Assembly: GCA_033764315.1 (NCBI GenBank)
Contig: JANRJA010000049.1
Location: 1 to 60,525 of the forward strand
DNA from: Oculatellaceae cyanobacterium bins.114
Lineage (GTDB): Bacteria > Cyanobacteriota > Cyanobacteriia > Elainellales > Elainellaceae
DNA: 60,525 nt
Direction: 5' to 3'
The notes under the pieces were generated by a model. It had not been told where the DNA came from, made no database searches, and saw only the letters and a list, made by a program, of their open reading frames with translations. Positions within the stretch are counted from its first letter, which is position 1. Each line of letters opens with the position of its first letter. The position numbers were made by a program, and so were the translations under genes. Positions 1-43,195 of the stretch are shown piece after piece.

Positions 1-128
1 GTCACATTTTTGGAAGTTCGCTATAAAGACTAATCTCATCCAGTAACTTGGATGACTGGTTTCGTTCGACTAAATTGCAGAACTCCCTCACGCACAAATC
101 CCCACACCCGCTTGACATCCCCACGGCT

Positions 129-215
129 TCATAGTCGTTCCTGGTCAGCGGTTTTAGGTGTCTTTGCTACACAACAAGCGGTTTGGGAAAATCCGCTGCA
201 CCAGGGTTGTTATGA
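129..215 (-). other. Integron attC-like recombination site (R' box degenerate)
   Basis: Minus strand reads TCATAAC-AACC-CTGGT(G)CAGCGG...CCGCTGACCAG-GAAC-GACTATGA: paired arms with one extrahelical G, and the R''-like TAAC overlaps the stop codon of ORF 210..980. Confidence 0.6.
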
Positions 216-980
216 CGCTACCCGCTCTGGAATAGGAAGCATATTTCGCCAATAAAATGTTTCTTTAGGTAAGACTAAAGCATCAACTCGCTCAAAGTCT
301 AACCGAACTGGATAGAAATCAGAATCGGAGCGTGAGTAGTTAAGAGGGGTCTCCTTGCAATCGGGAAGATAAGCTTCATAGTGTTGAAGAGTTGCCTGAA
401 GAAACCCAAATTTACCTGTTCCAGATTTAAGCATTGATTTCATCTCAGATTCGGTGACTTTTCGCATTGCGCTACTGAGCAAATGTCGAGTCTGTATTGG
501 AAAAGTAGAATCTTGAGATGCGAAATATTCATAGGTTACTTCAAGATCCCAGTAGCCAACGCCCCAGCCGCGATCGCCAATCTTTTCGTTGGGATCATCA
601 TAGTCATCCCAACCGAAATGATAATGCTCAACCCATTTGTCCTGATCAAAAATCTTCAGAGTACTCCACTCACTCACCCCTTGATGAGTAATAACCATAG
701 CCTTAGTTTCTAAAAGAAGAGCAAGGGCAAACGCTACCTCTTCAGACGAGAATGCCCACCAGATTGTCCAGGTATGTCCAGCATACTGCCAAAGAACATG
801 CTTCTCCTGCTCATCTAATGATGCAGGAAAAATGTCAGCATCATATTCCGCTCGAAAGTGGTTAGAAAGAGTAGAAGTAACAAGGTGAATTGGAGCTTCG
901 ATGAGAACTACACCAAAGCGATTCCAGAACCCGCCAGTAAGACCAAATCCTCGCTTTTCTGCAAGATTCCAACTAGACAT
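210..980 (-). CDS. Hypothetical protein, possible integron-type gene cassette
   Basis: 256-aa ORF, no family recognised; ends in the attC-like site. Confidence 0.75.
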   Translation of the reverse strand: MSSWNLAEKRGFGLTGGFWNRFGVVLIEAPIHLVTSTLSNHFRAEYDADIFPASLDEQEKHVLWQYAGHTWTIWWAFSSEEVAFALALLLETKAMVITHQGVSEWSTLKIFDQDKWVEHYHFGWDDYDDPNEKIGDRGWGVGYWDLEVTYEYFASQDSTFPIQTRHLLSSAMRKVTESEMKSMLKSGTGKFGFLQATLQHYEAYLPDCKETPLNYSRSDSDFYPVRLDFERVDALVLPKETFYWRNMLPIPERVAS

Positions 981-1116
981 AGAAATTTGAGTAATTGCCC
1001 CACCAGTAATCTCAATCTAACCTACCCACTCGTAACCCAATGGTAATTTGCTGCTTGACGTTGGCAGACAACTTTAAGGTACTGCCCCAACCGAGGATTC
1101 AGCGGCATAACTATTA

Positions 1117-1237
1117 ATAGACGGAAAGTTTCCGTCTAAGATCTTAATTTAGGGTGGATAGGCAGAAAATTTCTATCTAACATTCAGAATTAGGTGAATC
1201 GGTAGAAAGTTTCCACATATCATCCGAAATTGGTTGA
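1117..1237. repeat. Three degenerate ~40-bp tandem repeats with a palindromic core
   Basis: Units start at 1117, 1158 and 1198; the first core is TAGACGGAAA-G-TTTCCGTCTA. Confidence 0.75.
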
Positions 1238-1373
1238 ATAAGCTGACAACTTCATAGATATGTTGTACGTAAATACGTTGATATTTGCTCTTTTATGCAT
1301 GAGTTGCCGATGAAAGCGCAAATTTCTTGTGATGTGATTTAAGTTCATATCGGTAGCGCATCAGCCCATTTCC

Positions 1374-1705
1374 TTATCCAACAGCAAAATCGGTATAGTG
1401 TCGCATCATCGGAGGGTCAAATCTAAGGACGTGTCCTGTTTAGGCACTCCAAGCTCAACGAGCTTATTGGCGATTCCAACTTCAGTTCCGTCTTGTTGAA
1501 TCCAGATTTTGTTATCAATAACGTCCACATGAAGGACAACACCATAGACCCGTTTTGCTCCACGTCAACCAACGTAGACAAGCTGATAGTGATCACGTTC
1601 GGTGTCAAAAATAGTTTCAGCCTGAATTCGCTCATCCCACACTAGTTTTGCGTGTTCGATCATGAGTTGTTGAATGTATTGACGATAGATATCTATGGAT
1701 GCCAT
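1374..1705 (-). pseudogene. xisI: XisI-family pseudogene (nonsense mutation plus frameshift)
   Basis: Manual translation MASIDIYRQYIQQL...IFDTERDHYQLVYVG*RGAKRVYGVVLHVDVIDNKIWIQQDGTEVGIANKLVELGVPKQD; TGA at 1565-1567 where Trp is expected; the C-terminus VLRFDPPMMRHYTDFAVG* lies in another frame. Confidence 0.85.
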
Positions 1706-1749
1706 TGATCAACTACCTCCTGTTCGATGTCATAGACCAATAAAGCAAG
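1693..1749 (-). pseudogene. xisH: C-terminal remnant of an XisH-family gene
   Basis: LALLVYDIEQEVVDQWHP* overlaps the xisI start, as in intact xisHI pairs. Confidence 0.65.
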
Positions 1750-1832
1750 CTAATTGCCTTATGCTAGCCTCTACTATTCTCGCTTCATGTTGTGATGAAT
1801 TTGATTCCATATAACCTTCTAGAAACGCTGTG

Positions 1833-3008
1833 ATGAACAACTATGAATCGGTGCGGATGCAGGCGGTGCAATCGCCTATTATTCCTGTGATTGGGGAGTT
1901 GATTCAGCGTCACCCCGGCACAATTTCGCTGGGGCAAGGAGTGGCTTATTATGGTCCTCCCCCAGAGGCGATCGCCCAACTCACCCAGTTTCTAGCTGAC
2001 CCAGACAACCACAAATACAAACCCGTTCAAGGGATTGTGCCCTTGCAGGAGGCGATCGCCCACAAGCTTCAGACGGAGAACGGCATTCCCATCACCGAGC
2101 AAAACTGTGTCGTCGTCACTGCGGGCAGCAACATGGGTTTTATGAATGCGCTACTGGCGATCACATCACCCGGTGATGAGATTATTTTGCAAACCCCGTA
2201 TTACTTCAATCACGAGATGGCCGTGGCGATCGCCAGTTGCCGTCCGGTGTTGGTTGAAACGGATGAAAACTATCAGCTTCGTCCTGATGCAATTCGCGCA
2301 GCAATTACCCCTCGCACTAGGGCGATCGTCACGATTTCGCCCAATAACCCTACGGGGGCGGTCTATTCTCAAACGACCCTGCAACAGGTCAATGAGATGT
2401 GCCGCGAACATGGCATCTATCACATCAGTGACGAGGCATACGAGTACTTCACCTACGATGGTGTGCCCCACATCTCCCCCGGATCGTTTTTTGACAGTGC
2501 CGATTACACCATTTCGCTCTACAGCCTGTCTAAAGCTTATGGGTTTGCCAGTTGGCGGATCGGCTATATGGTGATCCCCAGACACTTGCTCAATGCCGTC
2601 AAGAAAATTCAAGATACGGTGTTGATTTGCCCGCCTGTTGTTTCCCAATTTGCAGCGTTAGGGGCACTCCAGGCGGGGATCGGTTATTGCAAAACGAAAC
2701 TAGAGGCGATCGCCCAGATACGGCAGACCGTATTGGCAGAACTCAACACCATTCCCCATTTGTGTACTGTGCCTGTCAGTCAGGGGGCTTTTTATTGTCT
2801 GGTGCGGGTTCACTTAGAGCGTGATGCCCTGGAGTTGGCTGAGCAACTGATTCGAGAGCATCACATCGCGGTGATTCCAGGGAATGCGTTTGGCATCGAG
2901 TCGGGTTGTTATTTGCGGGTGGCGTATGGTGCCTTGCAACACGACTCAGCGATCGAGGGGATCGGGCGATTGGTGCATGGCCTGAAGGCGATCGCCTCAA
3001 AGCGATAG
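1833..3008 (+). CDS. PLP-dependent aminotransferase class I/II
   Basis: ISLGQG, SPNNPTG, SDEAY and SLSKAYGFASWRIG motifs. Confidence 0.93.
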   Translation: MNNYESVRMQAVQSPIIPVIGELIQRHPGTISLGQGVAYYGPPPEAIAQLTQFLADPDNHKYKPVQGIVPLQEAIAHKLQTENGIPITEQNCVVVTAGSNMGFMNALLAITSPGDEIILQTPYYFNHEMAVAIASCRPVLVETDENYQLRPDAIRAAITPRTRAIVTISPNNPTGAVYSQTTLQQVNEMCREHGIYHISDEAYEYFTYDGVPHISPGSFFDSADYTISLYSLSKAYGFASWRIGYMVIPRHLLNAVKKIQDTVLICPPVVSQFAALGALQAGIGYCKTKLEAIAQIRQTVLAELNTIPHLCTVPVSQGAFYCLVRVHLERDALELAEQLIREHHIAVIPGNAFGIESGCYLRVAYGALQHDSAIEGIGRLVHGLKAIASKR

Positions 3009-7019: not shown

Positions 7020-8135
7020 GTGGCAAGGGTTTGTTTAGAAGACATTACGCGACGGTTTAACGCAGTTACGGCGATCGACCAGATTACCTTTGAGGTGCCC
7101 GATGGTCAGTTTTGGGTGCTGGTGGGGCCATCGGGGTGCGGCAAATCTACCATCCTCCGCACGATCGCTGGGTTAGATACGGCAACTTCTGGCAAGCTTT
7201 ACATTGGCGATCGCCTGGTAAATCAGGTGCCTGCTCGTCAGCGAGACGTGGCAATGGTCTTTCAAAACTATGCGCTCTATCCTCATATGACTGTGGCGGA
7301 GAATCTGGCATTTGGGTTAAAGATGCGAGGGAGCGATGCCAAAATGGTGCGATCGCGCATTGAGACAGTTGCTCGGTCGCTAGACATTGCTCATTTGCTC
7401 GATCGCAAACCCCGTCAACTCTCTGGGGGACAACAGCAACGAGTGGCACTAGGTCGGGCGATCGCCCGCGAACCTCAGGTTTTTTTATTAGATGAGCCGT
7501 TGTCTAACCTAGATGCTCAATTGCGAGATGATACGCGTGCTGAGTTAAAGCAACTGCATCAACGGTTAGGAATCACAACGATCTACGTGACGCATGATCA
7601 GGTTGAGGCGATGACTCTGGCTGACCAGATTGTGGTGCTCAATCGAGGGCGGATTCAACAGATTGGCGACCCTCAAACTATTTATGCCCAACCTGCTCAT
7701 CAGATGGTGGCAACATTCTTAGGCAGCCCACCCATGAACATTTTGCCTGCAACCTATGATGGTGCTCAGTTTCAGATGGCTGGAGGGCAAACCATTTCCT
7801 GTCCAGAACGGCTCCAATACGTGTTGCGATCGGCTCAAGGGCAACGCTTTAACTTAGGCATTCGCCCAGAGCATCTGAAAGTGGTCTCTGAACCTGCCCA
7901 TATGCCTGGTTTTGCCCATCTAAGTTTGGTGACAACCGTAGTGGAACCCTTGGGACGCGAGATTTTGATCCGCACAGTACTGCCAGAACAAGACCCAATG
8001 CAGTCACCTGTGATCAACATTCAAGTTGATCCAACAATTCGTCCAGTGGTAGGAGAGCGGCTTCAGATTCAGCTTGAGTTAGACTACCTATTTGTGTTTG
8101 ATCCGGCTACAGGCGATCGCATTACAGAGTCCTAA
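7020..8135 (+). CDS. Carbohydrate ABC transporter ATP-binding protein (MalK/UgpC type)
   Basis: GPSGCGKS, VFQNYALYPH, LSGGQQQR, LLDEPLSNLD and a C-terminal TOBE-like region. Confidence 0.95.
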   Translation: MARVCLEDITRRFNAVTAIDQITFEVPDGQFWVLVGPSGCGKSTILRTIAGLDTATSGKLYIGDRLVNQVPARQRDVAMVFQNYALYPHMTVAENLAFGLKMRGSDAKMVRSRIETVARSLDIAHLLDRKPRQLSGGQQQRVALGRAIAREPQVFLLDEPLSNLDAQLRDDTRAELKQLHQRLGITTIYVTHDQVEAMTLADQIVVLNRGRIQQIGDPQTIYAQPAHQMVATFLGSPPMNILPATYDGAQFQMAGGQTISCPERLQYVLRSAQGQRFNLGIRPEHLKVVSEPAHMPGFAHLSLVTTVVEPLGREILIRTVLPEQDPMQSPVINIQVDPTIRPVVGERLQIQLELDYLFVFDPATGDRITES

Positions 8136-41627: not shown

Positions 41628-43195
41628 TAACGATTCCCCTGCGATCGCAAACACCGAATGGCCTCTAACATGCCTCTGGCTTTGTTGAGCGTTTCTTCGT
41701 ATTCCCGTTCTGGTTCCGAGTCTGCCACTAAGCCTGCCCCTGCCTGAACTCTGACGGTGTGTTTGCCGTTCAGCTGATCGCGAACGACCATTGTGCGAAT
41801 GGCGATCGCCGTATTTAACTGTCCCTCAAAGTCGTAGTAGCCATAGGCACCGGAATAAGGCCCGCGACGACAGGGTTCTAGGGCATGAATGATTTCCATT
41901 GCCCGAATTTTAGGAGCACCGCTTACCGTCCCTGCGGGGAAACAAGCTTTTAGCAGATCCCAGGCGGTTTTGCTAGGGGCAAGTTCGCCCACCACATTGC
42001 TGACGATGTGCATGACGTGAGAATAGCGTTCAATCACCATTAACTCGTCAACACGAACAGAACCCATCGTGCAGACCCGCCCCAGGTCATTGCGCCCCAA
42101 ATCGACCAACATCACGTGTTCTGCCAGTTCTTTAGGGTCTTGCAACAACTCCTCTGCAAATGTGGCATCTTGTTGCGGAGTTTTGCCCCGTGGACGAGTT
42201 CCGGCGATTGGGCGGACCGTCGCAACACGACTCGTTTTATCTGCCGAGTTTTCGACCTTGACCATTACCTCTGGACTGGAGCCAATAATTTGCCAATCCT
42301 GGAAATGAAAGTATGCCATGTAGGGCGATGGGTTGATCAGCCGCAGCGACCGATAGAGCGCAAAGGGGTCGCCCTCATATTCGGCTGAGAGCCGCTGTGA
42401 GATCACGACCTGGAAGATATCTCCGGCGTGAATGTGCGCTTTTGCCCGTTCAACATTGGCGCAAAACTGCTCTTTTGTGGTGTTGCTCTGATAGAGCGGA
42501 GTAGAGGATGGATGACCTGTTTTTTGCTCTTGCGCGATCGAAGTGGGTGAACTCCACTCCAACACGGTATCTTTGCTGACTAGCGGCAGTTGTAGTTTTT
42601 CGACTATTTGGGTGACGCGATCGCACGCTTGTTGATAAGCCGTTGCCAAATCGGTTTGAGGATCCCGCAGATCGGCATAGGCGATCGCCCAAATTTTGCG
42701 TTGCACTTGGTCAAACACCAATAGTTGATCGATCTGCATCCACAACCCATCTGGCAAATCGTCTTCGCCAGCAGGATAAATGGGCACACGCGGCTCAATC
42801 CACGAGATCAACTCATATCCCCAAAACCCAAACAAGCCCCCAATTCCAGGTGGCAGTTGGGGCAATTTTACCGGAACGTAGGGTTGCAGACAGGCTTCTA
42901 ACGCCTCAAAGGGATCGCCCTCAAATAAGCGTCGAGATCCATCCCGGTGAACTTGAGTCGTTTGGCTCCCCTTCGCTTCTAAGATCCACACGGGGTCACA
43001 GCCCAGCAAGCTATAGCGAGCTAAGTTCTCACCACCTTCGACAGACTCTAACAAAAAGCTGTAGGGCTGTCCGGCACACACCTTATACCAGGCAGATACT
43101 GGAGTTTCAAGATCGGCAACCCATTCCTGGTAGACCGGGACAAAGTTGCCGTGTTGAGCAAATTCTGAAAATCGGGCAAAATCTGGGAAAATCAT
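41627..43195 (-). CDS. trpE: Anthranilate synthase component I
   Basis: LLESVEGGE, GDIFQVV, NPSPYM, PIAGT, EHVMLVDLGRND and GTVSGAPK. Confidence 0.95.
   Translation of the reverse strand: MIFPDFARFSEFAQHGNFVPVYQEWVADLETPVSAWYKVCAGQPYSFLLESVEGGENLARYSLLGCDPVWILEAKGSQTTQVHRDGSRRLFEGDPFEALEACLQPYVPVKLPQLPPGIGGLFGFWGYELISWIEPRVPIYPAGEDDLPDGLWMQIDQLLVFDQVQRKIWAIAYADLRDPQTDLATAYQQACDRVTQIVEKLQLPLVSKDTVLEWSSPTSIAQEQKTGHPSSTPLYQSNTTKEQFCANVERAKAHIHAGDIFQVVISQRLSAEYEGDPFALYRSLRLINPSPYMAYFHFQDWQIIGSSPEVMVKVENSADKTSRVATVRPIAGTRPRGKTPQQDATFAEELLQDPKELAEHVMLVDLGRNDLGRVCTMGSVRVDELMVIERYSHVMHIVSNVVGELAPSKTAWDLLKACFPAGTVSGAPKIRAMEIIHALEPCRRGPYSGAYGYYDFEGQLNTAIAIRTMVVRDQLNGKHTVRVQAGAGLVADSEPEREYEETLNKARGMLEAIRCLRSQGNR

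Follow-up and report, generated by a model that had tools for sequence, protein, structure and literature searches.

How does a single gene cassette come to lie at the tip of a cyanobacterial contig, followed by what looks like an integron recombination site and accompanied by no integrase? The question is raised by contig JANRJA010000049.1 of Oculatellaceae cyanobacterium bins.114 (assembly GCA_033764315.1), which we analysed over its whole length of 60,525 nucleotides (nt), hereafter the window. The window is contig C251 of a draft genome (G000) of 6.64 Mb in 251 contigs; because its position 1 is the contig end, the sequence further left cannot be read. A first reading, made from the letters without database searches (the sequence-only reading), had taken positions 129 to 1111 for an integron-like cassette, either the end of a cassette array or a relic of capture by an integron integrase (IntI). 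We report here that positions 1-1246, read on the minus strand, are very probably the front end of a decayed chromosomal integron, consisting of an orphan attI, one cassette, and an attC site split by an insertion sequence (IS).

The cassette ends in an attC site

The 256-aa open reading frame (ORF) of the cassette is present as first described, and its TAA stop codon (212-210) lies inside TCATAAC (215->209). The arms reported to follow it, CTGGT(G)CAGCGG (204->193) and CCGCTGACCAG (151->141), do pair with one bulged G, and the fold reaches beyond them by four extra pairs and a second bulge (top-strand A192), giving a stem of 205->188 against 155->140. Folded as DNA, positions 129-216 reach a z of -3.3 for the minus strand (as good a fold in 0 of 200 shuffles) and of -3.0 for the plus strand (in 3 of 200). 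The hairpin has the imperfect L''/L' stem, the unpaired central spacer and the variable loop of an attC. Its R'' box at 215->209 corresponds to RYYYAAC, though the first and third letters depart from RYYY, and the AAC is invariant in 13 of 13 members of the family described below. The bulged top-strand G199 and A192 are 6 pairs apart, as expected of extrahelical bases: in the account that Nivina 2016 (PMC5027507) gives of these features, they stand on the top-strand AAC arm with a 6-bp stem between them, the last is a conserved bottom-strand T, and the conserved bottom-strand AAC is located in R'. The bottom-strand T of the window site is that conserved T. The R' box, in turn, reads GACTATGA (G-ACTATGA at 136->129), and at 136->130 the window allele has G-ACTATG in place of a GTTRRRY complementary to R''.

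The hairpin belongs to a family. A motif-plus-stem scan of the genome returned about 15 sites of 86-89 nt with the same build, and 13 intact ones were aligned (alignment A1), omitting the window site and two others with the same odd 3' end. For A1, RNAalifold predicts 20 pairs, 10 of them with compensatory changes, which form an R''/R' helix on invariant AAC and GTT, a two-column unpaired spacer (columns 8-9 and 81-82), and an L stem of 16 pairs with bulged top-strand G and A 6 bp apart (columns 17 and 25). A covariance model, R1, was built from A1 with the window site left out. It scores 128-216(-) at 42.9 bits (E 4.9e-8), and its seven other matches in the 60.5-kb window score 8.7-10.8 bits (E 2.9-9.7). 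With the model, the fold and the box layout in agreement, the window hairpin is a genuine attC site, as had been proposed. An Rfam search of 1-3000 at E <= 10 gave three chance-level matches, none near the site and none reaching threshold. A more permissive genome scan for AAC...GTT plus a duplex was discarded as uninformative, its 3870 candidates being proportional to contig size.

An IS1111-type element sits at the crossover point of R'

The unusual R' had been noticed before, with the remark that the site may be inactive. The oddity is real and the site is probably inactive, but the cause is not decay: R' reads as it does because an IS has its right end precisely at the IntI crossover (bottom strand AA^C). 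At three sites in this genome (window, C136:464 and C99:1863), different attC bodies end ...GGAACG and then run into common sequence, ACTATGAAGCC... or ACTATGAAGCCGTGGGG..., where the 13 intact sites carry GTTRRSY. Identity to C136 is 95.6% for window 1-135 (C136:680-546) and 95.7% for window 1-141 (C136:680-540); to C99 it is 90% for window 29-151 (C99:2050-1928). On C136 the common stretch continues unbroken through 425 non-coding nt into a transposase gene on the opposite strand, which matches PF02371 (Transposase_20, E 1.5e-29), PF01548 (DEDD_Tnp_IS110) and, at 220.9 bits (cut-off 140), NF033542, 'IS110 family RNA-guided transposase'. The DEDD (IS110-type) transposase is thus found on C136 and not within the window, where it would lie left of position 1, past the contig end.

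Four relatives carry copies of the element. Their transposases are 92% (G003), 85% (G010), 86% (G013) and 66% (G001) identical, and the left flanks read GCCCAA, GCATAA, ACATAA and GCATAA, in that order. Their alignment defines the left end as AGAATCT + ATGTAAGCCGTGGG; the right end is CCCACGGCTTCAT + AGT, followed by CGTTCC (G003) or CGGTTC (G001) and then by the L' arm. The same right end abuts an attC in C136, C99, G003 and G001, and R1 scores the interrupted attC adjoining it at 35.9 bits in G003 and 24.1 bits in G001. The insertion point is therefore RYYYAA^C on the bottom strand, i.e. the G|TT crossover. Siddiquee et al. 2024 (PMC11187229), where they describe the ends of these elements, give IS1111 subterminal inverted repeats of 11-13 bp, extensions of 7 nt on the left and 3 nt on the right, and a non-coding region that lies downstream of tnp, the gene encoding the transposase. 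The element found here has the same structure, with a 425-nt non-coding region downstream of tnp, 13-bp subterminal repeats, and 7-nt and 3-nt extensions. It is presumably guided by an RNA. A seekRNA of the IS1111 family would carry short matches to both strands of the target, and within the non-coding region one 9-mer, C136:694-702, equals the junction of right end and target, a match that is suggestive only, with ~0.03 chance matches expected per strand.

The frame that opens at 118 had been thought to run off the window. It closes at TGA 4-2 within it, after 40 codons from GTG 124 or 38 from ATG 118, and meets an earlier TGA in the other two copies (C136 and C99, by eye); it is non-coding and lies within the IS end. 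A group II intron was also considered as the shared element and rejected, the adjoining gene being an IS110-family transposase. The non-coding region downstream of tnp further contains a 58-nt direct repeat (C136:781-838 and 902-959, 86% identical), which is also present in the G003, G010 and G013 copies.

The upstream box belongs to an attI remnant

The string GTTATGC-CGCTGAATCCTCG-GTTGGGGC at 1111->1084, earlier interpreted as the right half of a second attC, is indeed there, but it is not an attC half: its GTTATGC (1105-1111) is an attI R box. The sequence behind it, the platform 1112-1246, is common to five contigs (window, C77, C31, C199 and C97). The five copies are alike up to the R box and different beyond it, ending ...TCTAAnAATA|GTTA... 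before unrelated cassette sequence, and all end in a simple site of the form RYYYAAR-spacer-GTTRRRY. In the window this site is GTCTATTAATA|GTTATGC and follows three repeats that are 39-40 nt apart.

When the platform was compared by blastn with 22 intI-upstream regions of relatives, seven of the 22 matched window 1246-1105/1065 (E 2e-17 to 2e-4), all in the same orientation as the window platform and at the same distance (210-350 nt) from intI. The matches include G035:C8 (72% over 142 nt, E 2e-17) and G015:C254 (78% over 103 nt, E 8e-17). The matching regions have three to four ~20-bp repeats, ~40 nt apart, and end ...TCTAnTAATA|GTTA..., and the junction at the GTTATGC box is also found beside intI in relatives. 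An attI is expected to adjoin intI and to diverge from it, and on C251 no IntI match at E <= 0.01 lies beside the platform or elsewhere; as its homologues do adjoin intI at seven of the 22 loci, we call it an attI remnant.

Because the supposed half site belongs to an attI, the cassette is the first cassette of an integrase-less integron, not the end of an array. Of the two origins first put forward, the array end is thus given up. [quoted passage not shown] The window has one attC-model match in 60.5 kb, and the array may continue past the contig end.

Two other assignments were rejected on the way. GTTGGGG (1091->1085) was considered as the R' of an upstream site, and comparison of 35 sites shows that GTTATGC is the R box and the rest is leader; the platform was considered as the left end of the same IS, and the true left end, known from the relatives, differs, with no common proteins upstream. 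The leader motif occurs in 8 of 35 attC-downstream 30-mers and in two of the five attI platforms, vs 2.3% of random 30-mers. It has the form ...YYGGTNRRR..., is often followed by AGGTTATCTG (for example at window 1104-1081, C183:1283- and C155:41644-), and by eye resembles the 3' part of an attC loop. The other orphan platforms lie at C77 ~42250-42318, C31 ~7855-8010, C199 ~60880-61012 and C97 ~90700-90734, each leading into a different cassette start. The features of the locus are collected in Table 1.

Table 1. Coordinates of the integron remnant and of the IS end within the window
Feature	Position	Strand	Remarks
Right end of IS1111-type (IS110-family) IS	1..135	(+)	subterminal inverted repeat CCCACGGCTTCAT 120-132; 3-nt extension AGT 133-135
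Entire mobile cassette, 975 nt	136..1110	(-)	from TT (1110-1109) to G136
attC, cut after its last own base G136	136..215	(-)	model R1 score, fold, family alignment A1
R'' TCATAAC	215-209	(-)	attC part
Unpaired spacer	208-206	(-)	attC part
L'' arm	205-188	(-)	attC part; extrahelical top-strand G199 and A192 (bottom-strand C, T)
Variable loop	187-156	(-)	attC part
L' arm	155-140	(-)	attC part
Spacer, then G136	139-137, 136	(-)	TTRRRY part of R' displaced by IS
Cassette ORF, 256 aa	210..980	(-)	stop codon inside R''; small family
Cassette 5' untranslated part	981..1104	(-)	leader motif CGCTGAATCCTCGGTTGGGGCAGT at 1104-1081
attI R box GTTATGC	1105..1111	(-)	crossover between G1111 and T1110 (bottom strand AA^C, a1110/c1111)
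attI remnant without integrase gene	1112..1246	(-)	homology to intI-upstream regions of relatives
Three direct ~20-bp imperfect palindromes	1119-1137, 1158-1178, 1198-1218		39-40 nt apart; presumed IntI binding sites

The same cassette without the IS in other public runs

Copies of the cassette in other public runs were available as assembled contigs (X1, X3 and X5), not as reads. The X1 contig, 2631 nt long, covers 136-1095 at 98% identity (20 differences). Just left of 136 it reads ...GCGGCATAA, an uninterrupted R' (top strand GTTATGC) with no IS. Right of 1095 it has a variant leader, a GCATAAC box (1105-1111) and then attC-like GTCGCAGTTGAGCGG (spacer plus L' arm), with no platform. X1 thus leaves the window's flanks at both crossover points: on one side R' is intact, and on the other an attC body takes the place of the attI. 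As the X1 allele reads GTTATGC, the window site was canonical and is now interrupted; its context further means that the same cassette exists free of the IS between two attC sites and changes its surroundings at the crossover points. The X3 and X5 contigs have GTATAA and GGCTAA just left of 136, so that all three contigs lack the IS and show RYYYAA at this place. X2 and X3 cover only parts of the ORF, and two joints in X5 (211->1153 and 214->1180) were not used, their sides being short (22 and 36 letters) and their likeness 85%.

Integron sites and integrases across the genome and its relatives

Further attC-type sites, anticipated if the locus is of integron origin, are present in the genome: R1 finds 38 at E <= 0.01, of which 13 are the training set. 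They form co-oriented arrays with a spacing of 0.4-1.3 kb, clustered on C183 (5), C155 (4), C199 (4), C55 (3) and C99 (3), that is, on small contigs plus C155, C199 and C55. The genome also encodes an IntI-type recombinase. TIGR02249 matches C16:183-1124 at 482 bits (cut-off 265), an intact frame at a contig edge and the sole intact IntI of the genome. The region upstream of this intI matches another attI type (G038, E 5e-16) and not the window platform, and the intact integrase therefore belongs to another attI lineage. Contig C16 begins inside a palindrome (GACAGAATTCTGTC, within C16:1-182), about 180 nt upstream of intI, and for this reason the attI and the array of the live integron have been cut off by the assembly. 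Contig C251 itself holds no IntI match or remnant at E <= 0.01, in keeping with the earlier remark that no integrase is in view.

Among 41 genomes (40 relatives plus this one), 20 have an IntI above the TIGR02249 cut-off, and 40 have R1 matches at E <= 1e-4, from 1 to 81 each. Position is informative: in nine pairs from relatives the R1 match and intI are on opposite strands, the match 1.0-2.5 kb upstream of the gene, as in the canonical layout (G001:C11, G001:C12, G038:C25, G030:C5, G021:C53, G021:C369, G035:C47, and two pairs in G003). In five genomes with no IntI match at E <= 1e-20 (G008, G010, G020, G016 and G006) there are 24-57 attC-model matches each, and integrase-less attC sites seem to be unusually abundant in this cyanobacterial family.

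Two loci elsewhere in the genome are worth recording. At C155:33299-33418 (-) there is a short N-terminal fragment of IntI that contains a TAA stop; four co-oriented attC matches follow on C155, the first of them 1.9 kb away. This is a second decayed integron, one that keeps a piece of its integrase. C183:1-6189 is a cassette array with five attC-model matches (678, 1197, 1985, 3312 and 4498), in which two ORF pairs resemble toxin-antitoxin modules by eye, one of them reversed.

Weighing the explanations

Several observations weigh against a decayed integron at 1-1246. Contig C251 lacks even a fragment of an integrase, and five intI-less attI-like platforms in one genome, in unrelated contexts, are unexplained by simple decay. 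The co-occurrence of attC and IntI does not discriminate, given matches to the former in 40 of the 41 genomes and to the latter in 20, and some genomes with no IntI match at E <= 1e-20 are rich in attC-model matches (G008 57, G010 30, G020 30). The attC model derives from this genome's own sites, and the first extrahelical base of the window site is a bottom-strand C, a position usually held by G in the sites that Nivina 2016 (PMC5027507) describes. A promoter scan of 1-1500 found none between the attI remnant and the ORF, with counts at shuffle level. The X1 evidence comes from 30-letter loose ends of assembled contigs, the window contains 135 nt of the IS alone, so that this copy may be a dead footprint, and recombination at the locus is deduced from sequence only.

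Three other explanations bear on separate parts of the locus. The hairpin directly follows a stop codon, and its family also occurs in genomes in which no IntI was found, as might be expected of an ordinary intrinsic terminator or of a generic cyanobacterial palindromic repeat with no tie to integrons. We consider this extremely improbable, since a terminator scan gave no site at the hairpin, whose loop is about 32 nt and whose stem is followed by no T-run, whereas the AAC/GTT boxes, the unpaired spacer and the two bulged bases 6 bp apart are those of an attC; moreover, such sites stand in co-oriented arrays, are divergent from intI in relatives, and identical cassettes switch context exactly at G|TT. 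It is likewise very unlikely that the platform is the end of another small mobile element or repeat family that abuts GTT, with the cassette at a secondary site. Tandem palindromic repeats are known from transposon ends, and the five platforms of the genome share no proteins upstream and have no intI beside any of them; yet homologues of the platform keep a fixed distance and orientation to intact intI at seven of 22 loci in relatives, the copies on C31 and C199 reach the expected position of the intI start codon, and all platforms end in the simple site and then pass into unrelated cassette sequence.

The third alternative concerns the IS, and we take it more seriously. Window 1-135 could be a mere dead right-end footprint, with no transposase to the left and the attC permanently destroyed. 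Such footprints do occur in this genome, a right-end one at C99:1944-2050 (about 107 nt) and a left-end one at C133:14351-14503, which has the flank AGCTAA, an internal deletion and an in-frame stop, and the transposase gene is on one contig only, C136. The window copy, however, runs on to the contig end, past the break of the C99 footprint (window position 29), and a contig that ends inside a repeat is expected where there is a second near-identical full copy. A dead footprint is therefore a real possibility, albeit one that we lean against.

A possible course of events

Read as the front of a decayed integron, the locus consists of an attI without integrase gene (1246->1112), the R box (1111->1105), and a 975-nt cassette (1110->136) made up of leader, 256-aa ORF and an 80-nt attC hairpin. 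An integron integrase would have inserted this cassette through recombination at G|TT between attI and the bottom strand of attC in its folded form. The IS1111-type IS, oriented against the cassette, would have arrived afterwards. Its insertion lies precisely at the bottom-strand AA^C of R', where the integrase itself cleaves; the TTRRRY half of R' has been pushed off by it and the AAC triplet replaced with GTC. The interrupted attC could presumably no longer form an R box and should resist cleavage by IntI, so that the cassette would be locked in place unless the IS excised precisely. One may go further and suppose that in Cyanobacteria a lineage of RNA-guided IS1111 elements has come, by convergence, to target the exact phosphodiester cleaved by IntI (bottom strand AA^C), acting as a reversible cassette lock and as a driver of integron decay, and that the five platforms and the footprints reflect a recurrent IS-driven 'beheading' cycle and not independent accidents. 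This extension is speculative, and we think it unlikely to be right as it stands.

Relation to known systems

The locus resembles sedentary chromosomal integrons and CALIN, as these are portrayed in PMC4889954, in several respects: an IntI-type tyrosine recombinase in the genome, attC sites with R''/L''/L'/R', spacer and extrahelical bases, promoterless cassettes with an ORF ending in R'', many attC sites far from intI, and IS elements, which are common in and near arrays. Unlike a CALIN in that source's sense, the window combines a single attC with an attI that can still be recognised, a kind of site that IntegronFinder usually cannot search for. It also departs from typical integrons in its lineage-specific attC family with a bottom-strand C as first extrahelical base and in the five orphan attI platforms.

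The IS, for its part, resembles the IS1111-attC group (ISPst6, ISPa21, ISKpn4 and ISPa25) as characterised in the relevant portions of PMC11187229 and PMC3001079. It shares with that group the DEDD/IS110 transposase, a long non-coding stretch behind tnp, a subterminal repeat of 13 bp with extensions of 7 nt on the left and 3 nt on the right, and a fixed position in attC in a single orientation, antisense to the cassettes. The hosts differ: the known elements are from Pseudomonas or from class 1 integrons of enterobacteria, this one from a cyanobacterium. León et al. 2010 (PMC3001079), in their description of the insertion sites, place IS1111-attC elements antisense to cassettes and 'near the 5'-end' of attC motifs, whereas the window IS lies at the R' crossover (bottom strand AA^C), a comparison made by that description alone. 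Unlike group IIC-attC introns, as sketched in the same source, the shared element has no reverse transcriptase and, by eye, no domain V/VI.

Cyanobacterial integrons, integrase-less remnants and attC-targeting IS1111 elements are already in print, and current knowledge is not overturned by this locus. New here are the lineage of the host and a clean pair of alleles, one filled and one empty. The locus joins three layers of site-specific DNA mobility, an orphan attI, a cassette that switches context with breakpoints at G|TT, and a presumably RNA-guided IS placed on the cleavage point of IntI. With the filled and the empty allele one could ask if IS1111-type elements act to silence cassettes, and if the site is whole again once the IS has excised precisely. 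In addition, attI sequences, which standard tools do not look for, can now be recognised in a cyanobacterial integron lineage, and work on the 'bridge/seek RNA' of IS110/IS1111 gains a family that targets a recombination site both structured and conserved.

The cassette gene

Homologues of the cassette ORF fall into 15 clusters at 90% identity, of which the two that name an organism are both cyanobacterial (Geitlerinema sp. FC II and Nostoc sp. MBR 210). The genome has a paralogue at C100:3646-4413, 84% identical, and another copy is in a Stenomitos metagenome-assembled genome (MAG), the nearest named relative seen. If the ORF travels as a cassette, its homologues should stand in cassette context, and both copies examined do so, with attC-model matches upstream; in the Stenomitos MAG, a full attC that ends in GTTATGC, and then the same leader, stand ahead of the ORF. 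The cassette's own attC consists of an R'' stub alone in both the C100 and the Stenomitos MAG copies. Conserved synteny of the ORF across related strains had been named as a sign against a cassette; none of the 40 relatives searched carries a match, so the cassette reading stands.

The 256-aa protein has no match in Pfam, NCBIfam or a profile search of PDB sequences. In the ESM Atlas the matches are clusters without a name and, at 0.86, DUF6461 and DUF6928, which is below the threshold for a lead. A profile search gave 85 representatives at E <= 1e-3. Among the 55 remote homologues that were scanned, none has an above-cut-off Pfam domain across the matched part, and five have a Pfam match at E <= 0.001, four of these being unrelated extra domains outside the matched part (Ank twice, WGR and GUN4_N) and the fifth a sub-threshold DUF4926 match. 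AlphaFold2 gave a poor model from 15 sequences (predicted local distance difference test, pLDDT, 43) and, from 70 sequences, a mixed alpha/beta fold with pLDDT 89.3 and a predicted template-modelling score (pTM) of 0.89. A search of solved structures with this model returned no clear match, the best E of Foldseek being 0.027 and the best Z of VIA-align 4.7.

Two minor observations concern the sequence inside and beyond the cassette. The octamer GCGATCGC lies within the ORF at 570-577, and we take it to be the cyanobacterial HIP1 repeat. Just beyond the attI remnant, two short frames at 1406-1528 and 1565-1705 (-) match XisI (PF08869) at profile positions 61-93 (E 7e-12) and 1-47 (E 1.6e-9), respectively, and form a split, probably frameshifted, xisI pseudogene.

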